Assembly (NCBI GenBank): GCA_050123375.1
Contig: JASFHF010000001.1
Coordinates: 34,475-98,474 of the forward strand
Length of the DNA: 64,000 bases
From: Gammaproteobacteria bacterium
GTDB lineage: Bacteria; Pseudomonadota; Gammaproteobacteria; UBA12402
Direction of reading: 5' to 3'
The position numbers and the translations under genes were made by a program. Each line of letters begins with the position of its first letter. Position 1 is the stretch's first letter. A model generated the notes under the pieces. That model was not told the origin of the DNA and made no database searches. It saw nothing but the letters and a program-made list of their open reading frames with translations. Below are positions 2,948 through 43,478 of the stretch, one piece after another.

Positions 2948-4279
2948 CTACCTTCCAATACCAATATAGTGAAAACCCAAATCTCGAAGCTGTTGCGGAT
3001 CATATTGATTACGACCATCAAGAATTAAATTGCCGCGCATTGTGGATTTAATCTGCGTAAAATCAGGATTGCGAAATTGTTTCCATTCAGTAAACAATGC
3101 TAACACATCAGCATCTTCTACCGCATGATGTTGATGTTCAACTAACTGCAATGCTCCTTGCTCAAACCATTTCGTTGGCAATACTTTACGCGCCGCTGAC
3201 ATTGCAATTGGATCATAAGCTTTAATCACCGCACCCCGCTCAATTACTGCATGCAAAAAATCAATCGATGAGGCTTCACGCATATCATCTGTTTCCGGCT
3301 TAAACGCCAATCCCCACATTCCAATAGTTACATTTGAAAGATCTTCACCAAATTTCGTAATTATTTTTTTTGTCATCACTTGTTTTTGATATTTATTCAT
3401 CTCATCAACTGCAGATAAAACTTTAGACTCAAATCCACAATTTTTTGCCATATGAATTAATGCTCTAACATCTTTTGGGAAACATGAACCACCATAACCA
3501 CAACCAGGATAAATAAACGAAAAACCAATCCGTGAATCTGAACCAATGCCTTGACGAATATTTTCTACATCTACATTTAAACATTCACAAATATTCGCTA
3601 TTTCGTTCATAAAAGAAATTTTGGTTGCAAGTATTGCATTAGCTGCATACTTTGTCATTTCTGCGTCTCTAACACCCATAAAAATGATACGTTCATGATT
3701 TCGGGTAAACGGTGCATAAAGTTTTTTCATGATATCACGCGCTTTTTCGCTATCAGTACCAACAATAACTCTATCCGGACGCATTGCGTCATTTACCGCA
3801 TCACCCTCTTTTAAAAACTCTGGATTACTAACCACATCAAATTCTATATTAAGTTTACGCTGCTTCAATTCCTGTTGAATTGCATCTTTAACCTTTTCTG
3901 CAGTAGTTACCGGCACCGTAGACTTGTTAACAATAATTGCATAATCATTAATATATAGCCCAATATCTTTAGCTGCAGTTAACACATATTGTAGATCCGC
4001 TGAGCCATCACCATTACTTGGTGTACCAACTGCAATAAAAAATATTTTTGGCTGAATTTTAAGTTCCTGCAATGAACTCACAAAGTGTAATCTTTTCGCT
4101 TGATAATTCTTTTTAACCAATTCTGCAAGGCCTGGTTCATAAATTGGCATGATACCTTGTTTTAATTTTTCAATTTTATGCGCATCAATATCAACACAAA
4201 CAACATTGTTTCCCATTTCGGCAAAACAAGTACCACTTACTAAACCAACATAACCTGTTCCGATTACTACGATGTTCAT
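2948..4279 (-). CDS. ugd: UDP-glucose 6-dehydrogenase
   Basis: It has the 'MNIVVIGTGYVGLVSG' Rossmann N-terminus and the 'GGSCFPKD' catalytic Cys motif. The track ORF extends to 4345, but the extra 22 aa are encoded by an ME-2 repeat copy. An SD 'ggag' precedes ATG 4279. Confidence 0.85.
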   Translation of the reverse strand: MNIVVIGTGYVGLVSGTCFAEMGNNVVCVDIDAHKIEKLKQGIMPIYEPGLAELVKKNYQAKRLHFVSSLQELKIQPKIFFIAVGTPSNGDGSADLQYVLTAAKDIGLYINDYAIIVNKSTVPVTTAEKVKDAIQQELKQRKLNIEFDVVSNPEFLKEGDAVNDAMRPDRVIVGTDSEKARDIMKKLYAPFTRNHERIIFMGVRDAEMTKYAANAILATKISFMNEIANICECLNVDVENIRQGIGSDSRIGFSFIYPGCGYGGSCFPKDVRALIHMAKNCGFESKVLSAVDEMNKYQKQVMTKKIITKFGEDLSNVTIGMWGLAFKPETDDMREASSIDFLHAVIERGAVIKAYDPIAMSAARKVLPTKWFEQGALQLVEHQHHAVEDADVLALFTEWKQFRNPDFTQIKSTMRGNLILDGRNQYDPQQLRDLGFHYIGIGR

Positions 4280-4303
4280 AAATTCTCCAATATTTTTTGG
4301 GCC

Positions 4304-4408
4304 AATGCGAAAAGATGAGATGCGAGACAAAAGTGAGCGAAACATGCGAGTTTATAAACAATAAATGAGCATGTTGAGCGAACTTTTAACAAAGCAGATC
4401 GCTTTTCG
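4304..4408 (+). repeat. ME-2 MITE-like repeat, copy A
   Basis: The ~105-bp element 'gcgaaaagatgagatgcgagacaaaag...ttaacaaagcagatcgcttttcgc' has short terminal inverted repeats. Its end supplies the galU C-terminal codons and stop. Confidence 0.8.
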
Positions 4409-5270
4409 CATTGACCCAAATTTTTCTAAAATCATCTGCTAAATCTGCGCGCCTTAATGCATATTCAACTGTTGCATGTAAAAAACCAATTTTAGTGCCA
4501 CAATCATACCGAATACCATTAAATCTGCACGCATAAACATCTTCCTTTTGCATTAATGCAGCAATCCCATCCGTTAATTGAATTTCACCGCCGCTGCCTG
4601 GAGAAACTCGTTCTAATAAACTAAATATTTGTGGTTTTAACACATAACGGCCTACCACACCAAAATTTGATGGAGCATCTTGCGGCGTAGGCTTTTCTAC
4701 AATACCGTAAATTCTTGCCTTAGGATTTAATTCATCCCGCACATCAACTACACCATATTTTCTGCTGTTTTCCGGTTGAATCTGCTGCACGGCAACAACG
4801 CTGGAATCTGTTTGTTGATATATATCAATTAACTGCTGCAAACAAACTCGCTCTTTTGCATAAATCAAATCATCCGGTAATAAAACTGCAAACGGCTGAT
4901 CGCCCACAACTTCTTTAGCACATAAAACTGCATGCCCTAAACCCAAAGCTTCTTGCTGTTGCACAAAAACACATGTAATATTTTTTGGTAAAATATTTTT
5001 AACTTCATTTAAACTTTCTTGTTTATGTTGTGCTGTTAATACTTCTTCTAATTTAGCATCCGATGCAAAATGCTGTTCGATTGCAATTTTTGAACTATTA
5101 GTTACAAAAATCATCTCAGTGATACCAGCTGCAACTGCTTCATCAACTGCATATTGAATTAAAGGTTTATCTATAATTGGCAGCATTTCTTTAGGAACAG
5201 CTTTAGTCACCGGCAAAAACCTCGTACCTATTCCTGCTACCGGAAAAACTATTTTTTTAATTTCAGTCAT
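4386..5270 (-). CDS. galU: UTP--glucose-1-phosphate uridylyltransferase
   Basis: 'VFPVAGIGTRFLPVTKAVPKEMLPIIDKPLIQY' is the GalU signature. The last 7 codons 'AKSDLLC' and the stop are contributed by ME-2 copy A. Confidence 0.9.
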   Translation of the reverse strand: MTEIKKIVFPVAGIGTRFLPVTKAVPKEMLPIIDKPLIQYAVDEAVAAGITEMIFVTNSSKIAIEQHFASDAKLEEVLTAQHKQESLNEVKNILPKNITCVFVQQQEALGLGHAVLCAKEVVGDQPFAVLLPDDLIYAKERVCLQQLIDIYQQTDSSVVAVQQIQPENSRKYGVVDVRDELNPKARIYGIVEKPTPQDAPSNFGVVGRYVLKPQIFSLLERVSPGSGGEIQLTDGIAALMQKEDVYACRFNGIRYDCGTKIGFLHATVEYALRRADLADDFRKIWVNAKSDLLC

Positions 5271-5307
5271 TTATAACCCTCAATATGTGTTAACCACACA
5301 TGGCTGA

Positions 5308-5412
5308 CGCAAAAAGATGAGATGCGAGACAAAAGCGAGCGAAAAATGCGAGTTTATAAATAATAAATAAGCATTTTAAGCGAGCTTTTAACAAAGCAGA
5401 TCGCTTTTTGCG
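5308..5412 (+). repeat. ME-2 MITE-like repeat, copy B
   Basis: It is near-identical to copy A and overlaps the galE 3' end, supplying 'AKSDLLC*'. Confidence 0.8.
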
Positions 5413-6386
5413 CCAGCCATGTGACGTTCCCAACGCCAAGCATGTTCAATAATCGTAGCCAAATCAGCATATTTTGGCTGCCAATTAAGTTCCCGCTTAG
5501 CCTGCGTCGCATCTGCAACTAAAACTGCGGGATCGCCTGCCCGCCTTGGCGCATCAATAACAGTAAATGATCTTCCGGTTATACGTTTTGCCGTATCAAC
5601 AACTTCTTGCACCGAAAAACCATTACCATTCCCTAAATTATATTTTTTGCTAACCGGATTTTTCAACAAATTTTCCAATGCTGATAAATGCGCATCACAA
5701 AGATCTACTACATGAATATAATCACGAACACAAGTGCCATCTTCAGTATCATAATCCTTCCCAAAAATTTTCACATTATCACTTCTACCGCTAGCTGCCT
5801 GCAACACCAGCGGAATTAAATGAGTTTCCGGATCATGATGCTCACCAATTCGACATGAAGGCTCAACTCCTGCAGCATTAAAGTAGCGCAAGCATACCGA
5901 CTTCAAACCATACGCATAATCATAGTCATCTAAAATTTGTTCTACCATTAATTTACTTTTACCATATGGATTAATTGGATTTTTAGGATGTGCAATATCA
6001 ATCGGCGCATATTCCGGGTTACCATAAACTGCTGCGCTCGAAGAAAAAATAAAATTTTTAATATTTGCGACAAGCATTTCATCTAATAAATTCAAAGTAT
6101 TGCAAACATTATTGTGATAATATTTTGCAGGATCGATTACTGATTCACCAACTTGCGTAAATGCAGCAAAATGCATCACCGCAACAAATTGATGTTGATT
6201 AAATAACTGCTTAAGTAATTTTCGATCCGCCAAATCACCTTCAACAAACTCAGCATCTAATACCGCCTCGCGATGACCAGCAGATAGATTATCCAATACT
6301 ACTACGGAATAGTTATGCTTATGCAAAATATCCGCCATATGTGAACCAATATAACCAGCGCCACCAACAACCAAAATCTCATACAT
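5388..6386 (-). CDS. galE: UDP-glucose 4-epimerase
   Basis: 'VVGGAGYIGSH' is the NAD-binding motif and the YxxxK region is present. The protein matches GalE over its full length. Confidence 0.9.
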   Translation of the reverse strand: MYEILVVGGAGYIGSHMADILHKHNYSVVVLDNLSAGHREAVLDAEFVEGDLADRKLLKQLFNQHQFVAVMHFAAFTQVGESVIDPAKYYHNNVCNTLNLLDEMLVANIKNFIFSSSAAVYGNPEYAPIDIAHPKNPINPYGKSKLMVEQILDDYDYAYGLKSVCLRYFNAAGVEPSCRIGEHHDPETHLIPLVLQAASGRSDNVKIFGKDYDTEDGTCVRDYIHVVDLCDAHLSALENLLKNPVSKKYNLGNGNGFSVQEVVDTAKRITGRSFTVIDAPRRAGDPAVLVADATQAKRELNWQPKYADLATIIEHAWRWERHMAGAKSDLLC

Positions 6387-6438: not shown

Positions 6439-7503
6439 TTATGAAAGATCCGATATCTTTTTTTCAAGCTGTTCTAAAATGGATTTAACTTTCTGACTCT
6501 GGTCTTTATGCGCTACCAATACTGCATCTTTGGTTTCAACCACTATCACATCCTGAACACCTATAGCCGCCAAAGTACGCCCTTCAGATCTAAGATATGA
6601 ATTACTAACTTCATCAATAATAACATCCCCTACTTTGACATTATTATCATCATCTTTGGTACTTACCTCAAATAATGCAGACCAACAACCTACATCAGAC
6701 CAACCAACATCCATTGACACAACGCAAGCATCAGTGGTCTTTTCCATAACCGCATAATCAATCGAATCACTACGGCATTCACTAAATATTTTTTTATCCA
6801 AACGAATAAAATCAGGTGTGGATGTACGCGCCTTAAATGCTTTACGACAAGCTGCTAAAATATCAGGAGCATGTTGATTCATCTCCTGCAAAAAACGTGA
6901 AGCACGAAACATGAAAATACCGCCATTCCAATAATAATTTCCAGCTTCTAAATAGCTTTTGGCTTTTTCTAAATTTGGTTTTTCAACAAAACTATCAACT
7001 ATTTGCACACCTTCTATTAATTTTTCTCCCGCTTGAATATAACCATAGCCAGTCTCCGGTTTGTGCGGAACAATACCAAAAGTAATTAATTTTCCGGCTT
7101 GCGCGTATTTTGTAGCTTTATCTACTGCAGCCAAAAATGCAGCTCGATTAGCAATTAAATGATCTGAAGGCAATACCAATAAAATCGGATCATCACCATT
7201 AACCATCGCCTGTAATGCAGCAATGGTAATTGCCGGCGCCGTATTTTTCCCTACCGGCTCCAAAATAATTGCAGAACTTGTAACATCTATTTCCTGTAAT
7301 TGTCTGGCGATTAAAAAACGATGATCTTCATTACATATAAATAACGGCGGTAAAGAATTAGGAATATTTGCAACCCGCATAATTGTATCTTGAAACAAAC
7401 TATTTTTATCTAACAAACGTAAAAACTGTTTGGGCCGATCTTTGCGTGACAATGGCCACAATCGCGTCCCAAAACCACCAGAAAGAATTACAGGTAAAAT
7501 CAT
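6439..7503 (-). CDS. manC: mannose-1-phosphate guanylyltransferase (GDP-mannose pyrophosphorylase), nucleotidyltransferase domain only
   Basis: 'ILSGGFGTRLWPLSRKDRPKQF' is the N-terminal signature. There is no C-terminal cupin/PMI domain. Confidence 0.75.
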   Translation of the reverse strand: MILPVILSGGFGTRLWPLSRKDRPKQFLRLLDKNSLFQDTIMRVANIPNSLPPLFICNEDHRFLIARQLQEIDVTSSAIILEPVGKNTAPAITIAALQAMVNGDDPILLVLPSDHLIANRAAFLAAVDKATKYAQAGKLITFGIVPHKPETGYGYIQAGEKLIEGVQIVDSFVEKPNLEKAKSYLEAGNYYWNGGIFMFRASRFLQEMNQHAPDILAACRKAFKARTSTPDFIRLDKKIFSECRSDSIDYAVMEKTTDACVVSMDVGWSDVGCWSALFEVSTKDDDNNVKVGDVIIDEVSNSYLRSEGRTLAAIGVQDVIVVETKDAVLVAHKDQSQKVKSILEQLEKKISDLS

Positions 7504-7514
7504 TAAAATATCCT

Positions 7515-7637
7515 TTATCTACGCGGTTTATGTTTTCCTGACTTATGATTATCACCTTTATCAGCTAAATGCCAAAAAAGAATCATAGTTACAATAACTA
7601 TCGCCAAACCAATATAAGGAGCAATTATATTAATCAT
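7515..7637 (-). CDS. small hydrophobic peptide (40 aa, single TM helix and basic tail), paralog A
   Basis: It translates to MINIIAPYIGLAIVIVTMILFWHLADKGDNHKSGKHKPRR. Its start overlaps the stop of paralog B in an ATGA arrangement. It is below the ORF-track length cutoff. Confidence 0.45.
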   Translation of the reverse strand: MINIIAPYIGLAIVIVTMILFWHLADKGDNHKSGKHKPRR

Positions 7638-7750
7638 TTAGATTTGTGTCTCCCTGATTTATGGTCACCTTTGTCTGCTAAATGCCATAAAATAACAATG
7701 CCAACAATAACAATGGTTAAACCAATATAAGGAGCTATTATATTAATCAT
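7634..7750 (-). CDS. small hydrophobic peptide (38 aa), paralog B
   Basis: It translates to MINIIAPYIGLTIVIVGIVILWHLADKGDHKSGRHKSK. It is a tandem duplicate of A with many synonymous and conservative differences, which suggests both are maintained. Confidence 0.45.
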   Translation of the reverse strand: MINIIAPYIGLTIVIVGIVILWHLADKGDHKSGRHKSK

Positions 7751-7751
7751 T

Positions 7752-7934
7752 TTAATTACCTCCATCACACAAGCCAAAATACCATAAAATCATACCCGTA
7801 ACAGTTAAAGCAGCAAATGATATCCATTTCATATCTGGATGCAAATACAAACCAGTCAAACCTCCTATAATAAAAGCGACCGCAATTTTACGTAAATCTT
7901 GCCGTAAACTTTTAAAACTCACTTTTTTAAACAT
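7752..7934 (-). CDS. small membrane protein (60 aa, 2 predicted TM helices)
   Basis: It has two hydrophobic segments and lies in tandem with the peptide pair on the same strand. Confidence 0.4.
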   Translation of the reverse strand: MFKKVSFKSLRQDLRKIAVAFIIGGLTGLYLHPDMKWISFAALTVTGMILWYFGLCDGGN

Positions 7935-8321: not shown

Positions 8322-8579
8322 AATTGTTCTCCTTTTTATTAAAAAAATTTTATTCAAAAAATACCAATGAAATTATTTGGAAAAATAGAAATAAAAAGAG
8401 GTGAAATATTTAAAAAAATTACGAATGTAATTGGAAACAAGTTTAACAAATTAACCGTAAATGTCCAGCTATTTCCGCCAAATATTTCACAAATTTCACA
8501 ATTTGCAAAAATCGTATATTCTATAAAACGGCTATCATCTGCGTTATATACCCGTTACACTTGAAAATGCGAATATGTT

Positions 8580-8675
8580 GTCATTCCGCGACCCAGTATG
8601 TTGATCGCGGAATCCAACAAAAAGACTATCAAATAGCCTGGATCCCGCGGTCAACTAACAAGGCCGCGGGATGAC
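8580..8675. repeat. PE-3 GC-rich double-hairpin palindromic element, copy 1
   Basis: 'gtcattccgcgacc...gatcgcggaatcc' and 'ctggatcccgcggtcaa...gccgcgggatgac' are two inverted hairpin units. Confidence 0.8.
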
Positions 8676-20100: not shown

Positions 20101-20131
20101 AATTTATACTGCCAGTATAAATCCGGCATCT

Positions 20132-24787: not shown

Positions 24788-24857
24788 GCGGGACGCGGGC
24801 TTCACTCATTACAAGTGCCATGCTTGTTGCTTTGTAATGAGTGAAGCCCTGTCCCCC
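24788..24857 (+). repeat. PE-1 palindromic element, copy 1
   Basis: 'gcgggacgcgggcttcactcattacaag...gctttgtaatgagtgaagccctgtcccc'. Confidence 0.85.
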
Positions 24858-24934
24858 TGAGATGTTGTATAAAAACTTAGATATAAACAAACAAGGTTGG
24901 GTGTCCACCAAGCAAACTAAAAACGAGAACACTT

Positions 24935-26041: not shown

Positions 26042-26271
26042 ATGTAGGCGGGACGCGAGCTTCACATAATTACAACAGCCATGTTTGTTGCTTTGTAATC
26101 ATGTGAAGCTCCGTCCTTCAAAGAAATAAATAAAAAACTAACAAACTAAGAAATAAATGTAGGCGGGACGCGAGCTTCACATAATTACAACAGCCATGTT
26201 TGTTGCTTTGTAATCATGTGAAGCTCCGTCCTTCAAAGAAATAAATAAAAAACTAACAAACTAAGAAATAA
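26042..26271 (+). repeat. tandem duplication (2 x 115 bp), each unit containing a PE-1 palindrome (26048-26116 and 26163-26231)
   Basis: Units 26042-26156 and 26157-26271 are identical. The junction motif 'ctaagaaataa' is also the 3' end of the adaptor gene. Confidence 0.9.
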
Positions 26272-30599: not shown

Positions 30600-30668
30600 C
30601 GGGACGCGAGCTATTACATGATTACAAAGCCTTGTTTGTCGCTTTGTAATCATGTAAAGCTCCGTCCC
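30600..30668 (+). repeat. PE-1 palindromic element, copy 3
   Basis: 'gggacgcgagctattacatgattacaaagcc...gctttgtaatcatgtaaagctccgtccc'. Confidence 0.85.
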
Positions 30669-30689
30669 TCAAAGAATCTCGATTATGCT

Positions 30690-35066: not shown

Positions 35067-35134
35067 CGGGACGCGAGCTTTACATAATTACAAGGCCATG
35101 TTTGTTGCTTTGTAATCATGTAAAGCTCCGTCCC
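35067..35134 (+). repeat. PE-1 palindromic element, copy 4 (plus a 14-bp half fragment at 35171-35184)
   Basis: 'gtcgggacgcgagctttacataattacaaggcc...tgtaatcatgtaaagctccgtccc'. Confidence 0.85.
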
Positions 35135-35205
35135 ATTGAGATGCTAATTAAAGCCTCATAAACCATATATAGCTCACGTCCCGCCTAGCTCAATTCTTTG
35201 TTAAA

Positions 35206-39316: not shown

Positions 39317-39385
39317 GCGGGACAGCGTCTTCACGCATTACAACTGCTTTGTTTGTTGCTTTGTAATGGGTGAAGACCTGTCCCC
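39317..39385 (+). repeat. PE-1 palindromic element, copy 5
   Basis: 'gcgggacagcgtcttcacgcattacaa...gctttgtaatgggtgaagacctgtcccc'. Confidence 0.8.
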
Positions 39386-39824: not shown

Positions 39825-39927
39825 GGGACGGAGCTTTACATATTACAAAGCAACAAACAACGCCTTGTAATTATGTAAAGCTCACGTCCCGACGAGATTT
39901 ATTTTGTAATCATGTAAAGCTCCGTCC
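39825..39927 (-). repeat. PE-1 palindromic element, copy 6 (reverse orientation), full copy 39825-39890 plus an extra half-arm at 39904-39927
   Basis: 'gggggacggagctttacatattacaaagcaacaaacaa...gtaaagctcacgtccc'. Confidence 0.8.
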
Positions 39928-40660: not shown

Positions 40661-40670
40661 AACTAATATT

Positions 40671-40792
40671 TAGTTTCTGTGGTAACTACCGCGCATGCTA
40701 TATCCATGTTCTTTTCTAGTTATTTGCATGCTTGCTTACTCATGATTTTACAGAACAAACAAGCTGTAAAATCATGAGTTCCAAATTTTTCC
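40671..40792 (+). repeat. ~120-bp intergenic repeat E, copy 2
   Basis: 'tagtttctgtggtaactaccgcgcatgctata...ctcatgattttacagaacaaacaagctgtaaaatcatgagttcc' is about 80% identical to copy 1. Confidence 0.8.
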
Positions 40793-42000: not shown

Positions 42001-42126
42001 TTTTTTTACCTCTTGTGGGTCAATAACGATTAATTATAAAAATTAACCTCCCCTATTAACATTAAAAAGCAAATCTTGTCGGGACGATTTTTTGTTAATT
42101 ACATAGCAATAAATTGGTTTCTTTGA

Positions 42127-42194
42127 GGGACGGAGCTTTACATGATTACAAAGCAACAAACAAAGCCTTGTAATTATGTAAAGCTCACGTCCCG
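42127..42194 (-). repeat. PE-1 palindromic element, copy 7 (reverse orientation), with fragment 'tcttgtcgggacg' at 42074-42086
   Basis: 'gggacggagctttacatgattacaaagcaacaaacaaagcc...gtaaagctcacgtcccgc'. Confidence 0.8.
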
Positions 42195-42240
42195 CCTACT
42201 TACTACGCTTGTAATTAGTAAAAACCTATCCCCTTTTCAA

Positions 42241-43374: not shown

Positions 43375-43391
43375 TTAAAAACTAAAATACC

Positions 43392-43478
43392 GTCATCCCG
43401 CGACCCAGTCAGTTGATCGCGGGATCCAGCACTAAATTTCCAAACAGCCTGGATCCCGCGGTCAAGCCGCGGGATGAC
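43392..43478 (+). repeat. PE-3 GC-rich double-hairpin element, copy 2 (3' flank of tuf)
   Basis: 'gtcatcccgcgacccagtcagttgatcgcgggatcc...ctggatcccgcggtcaagccgcgggatgac'. Confidence 0.85.

Follow-up and report, generated by a model that had tools for sequence, protein, structure and literature searches.

Copies of a hairpin-forming, probably mobile repeat supply the C-terminal residues and stop codons of galU and galE in a gammaproteobacterium

Background

How can two unrelated enzymes, encoded side by side, come to end in the same seven amino acids? The question is raised by a stretch of 64,000 nucleotides of a gammaproteobacterial genome (assembly GCA_050123375.1, contig JASFHF010000001.1, positions 34,475 to 98,474; 'the window' denotes this whole stretch), in which the nucleotide-sugar genes galU and galE both terminate with the codons for AKSDLLC. 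The original prediction, made from the letters alone, ascribed the shared tail to copies of a repeat resembling a MITE (a miniature element with inverted repeats, one of the non-autonomous DNA transposons). We describe here the repeat family and its sites, together with the corresponding sites in related genomes. The repeats very probably constitute a MITE family, members of which inserted into the coding 3' ends of galU and galE. The features needed for the argument are the following:

2948..4279, minus strand: ugd (UDP-glucose 6-dehydrogenase), 443 aa, Pfam support
4276..4296, minus strand: displaced native galU 3' end, AAAAT ATT GGA GAA TTT ATGA
4280..4345, minus strand: spurious 22-codon N-terminal extension of ugd, starting at an ATG inside copy A
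4297..4419, forward strand: copy A, antisense to galU and ugd, with a perfect 5-bp duplication ATTTT at 4292-4296 and 4420-4424
4386..4418, minus strand: element-encoded galU end, 10 codons WVNAKSDLLC plus TAA, in place of a native end of the type ...LENL or ...LGDQF
4386..5270, minus strand: galU (UTP-glucose-1-phosphate uridylyltransferase), 294 aa, Pfam support
5267..5298, minus strand: displaced native galE 3' end, TGTGG TTA ACA CAT ATT GAG GGT TAT AAA TGA
5299..5421, forward strand: copy B, antisense to galE and galU, an old insertion
5388..5420, minus strand: element-encoded galE end, 10 codons MAGAKSDLLC plus TAA, in place of a tail of the type ...KLANIED
5388..6386, minus strand: galE (UDP-glucose 4-epimerase), 332 aa, Pfam support
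6439-7503, minus strand: manC-type gene, Pfam support
44925..45046, minus strand (inverted): copy C, co-directional with a tRNA-Tyr/Gly/Thr-tuf operon
61335..61457, plus strand: copy D, co-directional with its flanking genes, 10 nt upstream of the ATG (61468) of an MFS transporter gene

Results

The common tail is encoded by the repeat

On the gene strand, galU and galE both finish with GCG AAA AGC GAT CTG CTT TGT TAA, which reads AKSDLLC followed by a stop codon. The claim that this heptapeptide and its TAA are contributed by the repeat stands; the tail of element origin, taken as seven residues, is in fact 10 residues long. Its first three residues are WVN in GalU and MAG in GalE because the outer stems of copies A and B differ, and the heptapeptide is identical because both copies have the same orientation and frame. 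In the family consensus, reverse frame 1 reads RTYAKSDLLC and then meets a stop, earlier than either of the other reverse frames, which stay open for 38 and 21 codons; stop codons are present in all three forward frames.

The window proteins end in ...DFRKIWVNAKSDLLC (GalU) and ...WRWERHMAGAKSDLLC (GalE), and orthologues devoid of the element end otherwise, as had been expected if the native ends were replaced. The closest GalU relatives, at 85-88% identity, terminate in ...DFRKILGDQF, where the window has ...DFRKI/WVNAKSDLLC (the slash marks the junction), so that divergence starts exactly at the right arm of the element. In GalE the junction is ...WRWERH/MAGAKSDLLC, and relatives with an empty site end in ...WRWERKLANIED (L009), ...WRWECKLANIEDHNG (L023) or ...WRWELTQKGSNG (L021); the labels L001 to L025 designate contigs or loci from related metagenomes and from the metagenome-assembled genome (MAG) JASFHH01. 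An ending of the form K[SN]DLLC was found in 3 of the 240 GalU and GalE homologues retrieved, namely the two window proteins and the GalE of L008, all of which carry the element.

Empty sites give the direction of change

Site A reads, on the gene strand, GATGATTTTAGAAAAAT[element]AAAATATTGGAGAATTTATGAAC. Once the element and one AAAAT are removed, the sequence becomes GAT GAT TTT AGA AAA ATA TTG GAG AAT TTA TGA, a galU end encoding ...DDFRKILENL with the ATGA overlap onto ugd restored. At the same position, L022 has AAA AAA ATA TTG GAA GAA AAT ATA TGA. The insertion point thus lies 5 codons ahead of the native galU stop. The displaced galU end, which without the element would continue in frame as ...KILENL with its TGA overlapping the ugd ATG, now serves only as leader and ribosome-binding site of ugd. 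Site A is empty in L021, L009, L020 and L022.

At site B, the displaced galE end is homologous to coding sequence of L009 (TTA GCA AAT ATT GAG GAT TAA). Its TGA overlaps the galU ATG, and the stretch is 100% identical to L008. Copy B inserted roughly 8-10 codons ahead of the galE stop, and its site is empty in L021, L009 and L023. The direction of change at both sites follows from these relatives, as their empty sites prove the ancestral state. Homology to solved structures stops at residue 287 for GalU and at about residue 321-325 for GalE, before the tails in question; the segments exchanged were therefore short, naturally variable tails beyond the conserved fold.

The galE-galU junction of L009 carries an element of another kind (2408-2585, in JASFHH010000082), a palindrome of ~160 nt lying in the 5' end of galU and folding at -67 kcal/mol (z-score -8.7). 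It duplicates GTTAAAAAA, and the GalU N-terminus becomes MSVPGKGLNNC instead of MVEVKK. We considered whether this palindrome might be a remnant of the 123-bp family and rejected the idea, the common part being only the loop motif AAAGCGGAGTTTA..TAAATGAGCATTT. As the element is a different one, the galE/galU junction has been struck independently in two lineages.

Copy A also accounts for an apparent anomaly of ugd. The open reading frame (ORF) at 2948-4345 comprises ugd and the 22-codon extension, and the gene call of JGI, in whose metagenome 3300042731 the window lies, adopted the extended form of 465 aa. That this extension is spurious, as first suggested, is borne out by relatives, in four of which ugd is 443 aa long. 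The true start is the ATG at 4279-4277, which is preceded by GGAG and is common to the relatives.

Stop/start overlaps were lost from the operon

The pristine gene order is found in L021, where galE, galU and ugd each overlap the next gene by 4 nt (ATGA or TTGA) with no element in between. This shows an ancestor in which galE, galU and ugd were translationally coupled by overlaps of 4 nt. In the window, the galE-galU and galU-ugd overlaps are gone and a spacer of ~105-115 nt stands in their place. The new galU and galE stops fall ~27 nt into the 5' arm of a hairpin of -43 to -47 kcal/mol. Beyond the hairpin, 17 and 28 nt separate it from the start codons that follow, whose GGAG and GAGGG sites are unpaired in the predicted folds.

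An element had been thought to separate every gene of the cluster from the next. This holds for galE-galU and galU-ugd; the galE-manC gap consists of 52 nt of unrelated sequence, in which a permissive profile search found no copy. The suggestion that the elements uncouple or re-wire transcription found no support: a scan of the element for promoters and terminators returned nothing above shuffled expectation, and no T-run follows the hairpin in either orientation. What the loss of the stop/start overlaps does show is a loss of translational coupling.

Limits and anatomy of the element

The four copies located by the original prediction do belong to one family, with a mean column identity of 80% in a four-way alignment. 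The most conserved segment, TTTTAACAAAGCAGATCGCTTTT, is invariant; the window contains it four times and no more, where shuffled sequence predicts 0.00 occurrences. The left-hand box, AAAAGATGAGATGCGAGACAAAAG, likewise occurs four times with up to 2 mismatches permitted. The limits first drawn were too narrow, however. With 22 more copies and the target-site duplications taken into account, the element is 123 bp long. The copies share boundaries, having common limits, terminal inverted repeats and 5-bp target duplications.

The terminal inverted repeats had been described as short features of the ends. Instead, every copy is an imperfect palindrome over its entire length and folds as one long hairpin. 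The terminal repeats proper measure ~20 nt (consensus CAGGACTTACGCGAAAAG...CTTTTCGCGTAAGTCCTG), and 95% of cells in the outer helix are paired across 15 copies. For the four window copies, the forward strand (AAAAGATGAG...) has a folding energy between -49.7 and -51.8 kcal/mol (z-scores between -8.1 and -10.7), and the opposite strand one of -40.6 to -47.3 kcal/mol. The arms are not inverted copies of a single REP unit, and asymmetric internal loops are conserved. Internal-deletion variants of 67-78 nt (L010, L011, L016, L020) and internal-insertion variants (148 nt in L012 and L014, and a similar long copy in L015) all retain both ends.

The element has no coding capacity: its longest ORF, of 17 codons, is not conserved. 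A peptide gene within the element (the forward 17-codon ORF MRCE...NNK) was rejected, an indel in copy C and loop variants breaking the frame. We also rejected the idea that the outer stems arose as inverted duplicates of the target. Divergence from the closest GalU relatives sets in exactly at the start of the full right arm, and a target origin of the stems is further ruled out since most copies have the same outer stem, which is thus part of the element.

Family-wide covariation and slow change of copy B

An RNAalifold consensus of 15 full-length copies contained 44 pairs, 17 of which showed changes on both sides that kept the pair. Shuffled alignments gave 8.0 +/- 1.7 such pairs (0 of 500 reached 17), and sliding the partners by 1-3 columns gave 0-2. 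In the predicted stem, 97.3% of cells were paired, and even the outermost two bases covaried (CA/TG, CT/AG, TT/AA). Single-sided changes comprised 10 G.U and 8 A.C mismatches, that is, there was no preference for a transcribed strand. The hairpin of ERIC elements is also preserved by compensatory changes. The constraint may lie with the RNA, with DNA that is single-stranded or cruciform while transposing, or with correction of one arm by the other.

Copy B could be followed at the same site, with the same CATGGCT outer stem, in two relatives: it is full length in L008 and present as a 78-nt form, without the central 45 nt, in L020. Between the window and L008, the 123 nt of copy B are 95.1% identical, and 114 of 118 positions agree over the non-coding part of the copy and the 28-nt leader taken together. 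This compares with 65.8% identity at the four-fold degenerate sites of manC, galE and galU (n = 333) and 49-67% in the other intergenic gaps. The binomial probability is about 2e-16, and the peak is confined to element and leader (window 5271-5421 and L008 9850-10000, copy B plus galU leader, 96.6% identity). The six differences within copy B include a compensatory change from a G-C to an A-T pair.

Over manC-galE, the nearest relative of the window is L009 (89-96% identity), which is devoid of copy B, as are L021 and L023; downstream of copy B the window is no longer L009-like. As read from these alignments, the pattern points to purifying selection in situ, with recombination at the junction as a live alternative.

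Spread and target-site duplications

A scan of public collections with the core returned seven copies in MAG JASFHH01 ('Gammaproteobacteria bacterium') and 10 metagenome loci. A profile search of all fetched sequence then found 22 copies outside the window, making 26 in total, at different loci. All the copies found come from a few uncultured Gammaproteobacteria that are related to one another.

The flanking direct repeats consist of 5 bp of variable sequence. They are perfect in 4 of 19 copies (ATTTT at copy A, ACAAA in L001, AAGGT in L002 and CAAGG in L012), and flanks agree at 4 or more of the 5 positions in 8 of 19, against 3.5% of mismatched flank pairs (permutation P < 5e-5). Several duplications resemble Shine-Dalgarno sequences (AAGGT, AAGGA, CAAGG, TAAGG). 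The duplication of copy B has decayed to CGTCA/TGTGG on the gene strand. Among related genomes, filled and empty sites were both seen, copies A, B and C each having empty counterparts.

In 17 of 20 independent copies the forward strand is co-directional with the flanking genes (binomial P = 0.003); of the three exceptions, two are copies A and B. A start codon follows 8-20 nt downstream of the end of many forward copies.

Copies C and D, and further gene fusions

Copy C lies between tRNA-Gly (45065-45138) and tRNA-Thr (44850-44922), 2 nt from the 5' end of the latter. Its site is empty in the sister contig L025. No orthologous filled copy was found: the contigs of three relatives break off at the tRNA operon or close to it, and the sole one that reaches the operon has the empty site. 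At copy D, the target duplication AAGGA/AAGGG takes in the Shine-Dalgarno-like site of the MFS transporter gene.

The family also enters genes elsewhere. In L003 (2521-2642, in JASFHH010000011), an element sits in frame inside the dehydratase domain of the bifunctional NAD(P)H-hydrate repair enzyme Nnr. It adds ~41 aa between DADALNLLA and ILTPHP and leaves a 529-aa ORF intact; residues 351-394 match residues 362-368 of PDB entry 2ax3. The ORF stays open because a 1-nt loop variant eliminates the usual stop. This insert agrees with the early suggestion that the element behaves as the co-translated RPE of Rickettsia do. In L005, a nitroreductase-like ORF (named from its translated sequence only) ends in 21 residues encoded by forward frame 2 of the element.

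In L013, the region 385-1160 upstream of nusB contains one full, one partial and two degenerate copies, which are read through as a spurious N-terminal extension of ~150 aa of the nusB ORF. A solo right end in this locus (1101-1160) was examined as the possible end of an autonomous insertion sequence; it was rejected, the adjoining ORF being nusB and not a transposase.

Other repeats and features of the window

Hairpin repeats abound in this genome. Another palindromic family, of ~70 nt (GGGACGCGAGCTTTACATAATTACAAGG...CTTTGTAATCATGTAAAGCTCCGTCCC) and with more copies than the first, occurs in both orientations in the spacers after rpoC, rpoB, rplL and other genes, and looks REP-like or terminator-like. 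Its copies are at the following positions:

24789-24863, 26050-26124, 26165-26239, 30601-30675, 35067-35141, 39317-39385, 39842-39891, 42125-42199, 53822-53896 and 60258-60332: palindromic family of ~70 nt

An inverted repeat with arms of 127 nt occupies 19856-20122 and has a related copy 20 kb away, at 40667-40787. A short GC-rich palindrome (..CCCGCGACCCAG..GATCGCGGGATCC..) was seen at 8565-8667, 43377-43478 and 44787-44816, adjoining tRNA-Trp and tRNA-Thr. The 5' half of tRNA-Ser(GGA) has an exact 38-nt duplicate 141 nt upstream of the gene (62823-62860 and 62964-63001), which may be the remnant of a rearrangement or integration.

Upstream of manC, a 93-nt tandem duplication of 82% identity (7552-7757) spans two ORFs of ~40-60 codons, and in relatives, too, two such small genes have been called there. 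An ORF of 2253 aa on the minus strand (46373-53134) matches nothing in Pfam at E < 1e-5; an unannotated ORF of similar size lies beside queA in relatives.

Discussion

How the tails may have been exchanged

The preferred explanation, insertion of a MITE, is supported by the fold of the family and its copies at unrelated loci, the target duplications, the filled and empty sites, the reconstruction of site A, the C-termini of orthologues, the consensus reading frames, the other gene fusions, the size variants and precedents in the literature. A transposase acting in trans has presumably moved the family. Copies A and B inserted in reverse orientation, in the reverse frame with the earliest stop. 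Each enzyme lost a short variable C-terminal tail and gained 10 element-encoded residues with a TAA, the old 3' ends being turned into untranslated leaders of the next gene. GalU and GalE presumably remain functional, as only the variable tail was swapped, and each downstream gene would now need translation initiation of its own. The hairpin probably has its effect on RNA, for instance as an RNase III substrate or a stability element. Such a role would agree with covariation that preserves the structure throughout the family and with the unusual slowness at which copy B evolves. The basal helix, which is long and perfect, could plausibly be cleaved by RNase III, something shown for Correia elements and proposed for QMITE2.

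Several observations weigh against this explanation. The 64 kb of the window encode no transposase, none was seen in the loci examined or beside solo ends in the fetched loci, and no autonomous element with matching ends was found. Clean target duplications are lacking at copies B and C, and at copies with CT...AG ends. The terminal repeats differ among copies and covary arm against arm, down to the outermost two bases, which is not obviously expected of a site recognised by a sequence-specific transposase. The presence of copy B, finally, is patchy relative to the similarity of the flanking genes.

Alternative explanations

The rival that survives best is compatible with a MITE origin. It holds that copy B at least, and perhaps all copies, are not just tolerated selfish DNA: they would be functional RNA modules, exapted and kept by purifying selection in the host as intercistronic elements for processing, stability or control of translation. 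The near identity of copy B and its leader beside the diverged four-fold sites, the compensatory pair change inside that orthologous copy, the doubly changed pairs throughout the family and the co-directional copies placed shortly upstream of start codons all argue for it. Recombination could also yield the high identity of copy B, however, and the presence of this copy does not track the similarity of the flanking genes. The single mismatches show no bias towards a transcribed strand, the central 45 nt could be lost in L020, and the element contains no promoter or terminator signal. We entertain this rival only tentatively.

A more specific version would combine both ideas: the insertions, above all B, would have been selected as RNA modules upstream of ribosome-binding sites at cistron junctions, splitting the coupled galE-galU-ugd unit into separately controlled cistrons. 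We find such a domesticated MITE conceivable and somewhat more doubtful still.

A third possibility is an element of the REPIN type, a doublet or hairpin moved as single-stranded DNA by a RAYT/IS200-type tyrosine transposase that recognises the hairpin structure. This would account for a palindrome of full length in which compensatory changes keep the arms complementary out to the tips, and a bias in gene orientation might conceal one in replication orientation. It is nevertheless improbable: the 5-bp target-site duplications are a product that the RAYT/IS200-type mechanism does not make, a single REP unit in two inverted copies does not describe the arms, and the window has no gene with a Y1-transposase domain. 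Lastly, the notion that AKSDLLC is a native or convergent C-terminal motif and its likeness at the DNA level incidental is refuted, as the tail is confined to element-bearing genes, the closest relatives end otherwise, and the same DNA also lies between tRNA genes and in non-coding spacers.

Significance

Insertion of a MITE thus remains our preferred account, and the locus offers a case that can be followed base by base, in which a mobile hairpin element gives two housekeeping enzymes other C-termini and other stop codons and breaks the overlaps of a nucleotide-sugar operon. It also illustrates how gene callers mis-annotate in the neighbourhood of such elements, the false 22-codon extension of ugd and the long false N-terminus of nusB being two examples. 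The family joins features of DNA transposition with strong structural covariation, and one old copy changes far more slowly than neutral sites. This makes it a reasonable system for asking when a MITE turns into a regulatory element of its host.

Comparison with known systems

The 123-nt consensus had no match in 5,426 E. coli genomes (blastn of complete genomes), and so no similarity to ERIC. There was no match to the element among PLSDB plasmids or INPHARED phages, and Rfam 15 gave no family at gathering thresholds, the only weak match being a chance hairpin with a plant microRNA precursor (20 bits against a threshold of 95).

In kind, by contrast, the family has many counterparts, since MITEs with long hairpins and target duplications, fused to gene ends or lying inside genes, are well documented (PMC3184786, PMC10969869). 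It is like the ERIC/IRU elements of Enterobacteriaceae, imperfect palindromes of ~125 bp in transcribed operon spacers with shorter deletion and longer insertion variants, which are thought to affect mRNA stability (PMC10969869). It differs from them in its variable 5-bp duplication and its hosts, and in that it also occurs within an ORF and in the ends of coding sequences. The bcr1 repeats of the Bacillus cereus group (~155 bp) are also small and mobile and have 5-bp direct repeats; they are transcribed, and compensatory base changes keep their double-stranded RNA structure (PMC3184786). Their hosts are Firmicutes, and the likeness is one of description.

Like our family, the palindromic RPE of Rickettsia lie in frame in protein genes and are co-translated (PMC10969869), as seen here in the Nnr insert and at the C-termini of GalU, GalE and one further protein. 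The comparison, again by description, has its limits: RPE are mostly internal in-frame inserts with a conserved peptide, whereas most copies here are intergenic and, having stops in three forward frames, usually terminate translation. The Correia elements of Neisseria (CREE/NEMIS) are MITEs at gene boundaries that are co-transcribed, form hairpins cleaved by RNase III and can alter the expression of their neighbours (PMC10969869). They have a TA target duplication, promoters and an IHF site, in contrast to the 5-bp duplication and the absence of promoter-like signals above chance in the present family.

The gammaproteobacterial MITEs QMITE1 and QMITE2 of Coxiella burnetii overlie the 3' ends of functional genes, among them ubiB, mutT, recN and ruvB, and can provide C-terminal residues and a stop, as in a 33-aa extension of EnhC; their stem is very stable and has been put forward as a substrate of RNase III (PMC5896051). 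They are 150-400 bp long, their direct repeats measure 2-3 nt or 7-11 nt, IS1111 inserts preferentially into QMITE2, and nothing suggests relatedness in sequence. As the phenomenon is already documented for RPE, ERIC, Correia, bcr1 and QMITE, it will be no surprise to the specialist. We conclude that the family, although undescribed by sequence, is of a well-known kind, a MITE resembling ERIC, bcr1, RPE and QMITE, with RPE and bcr1 compared by description.

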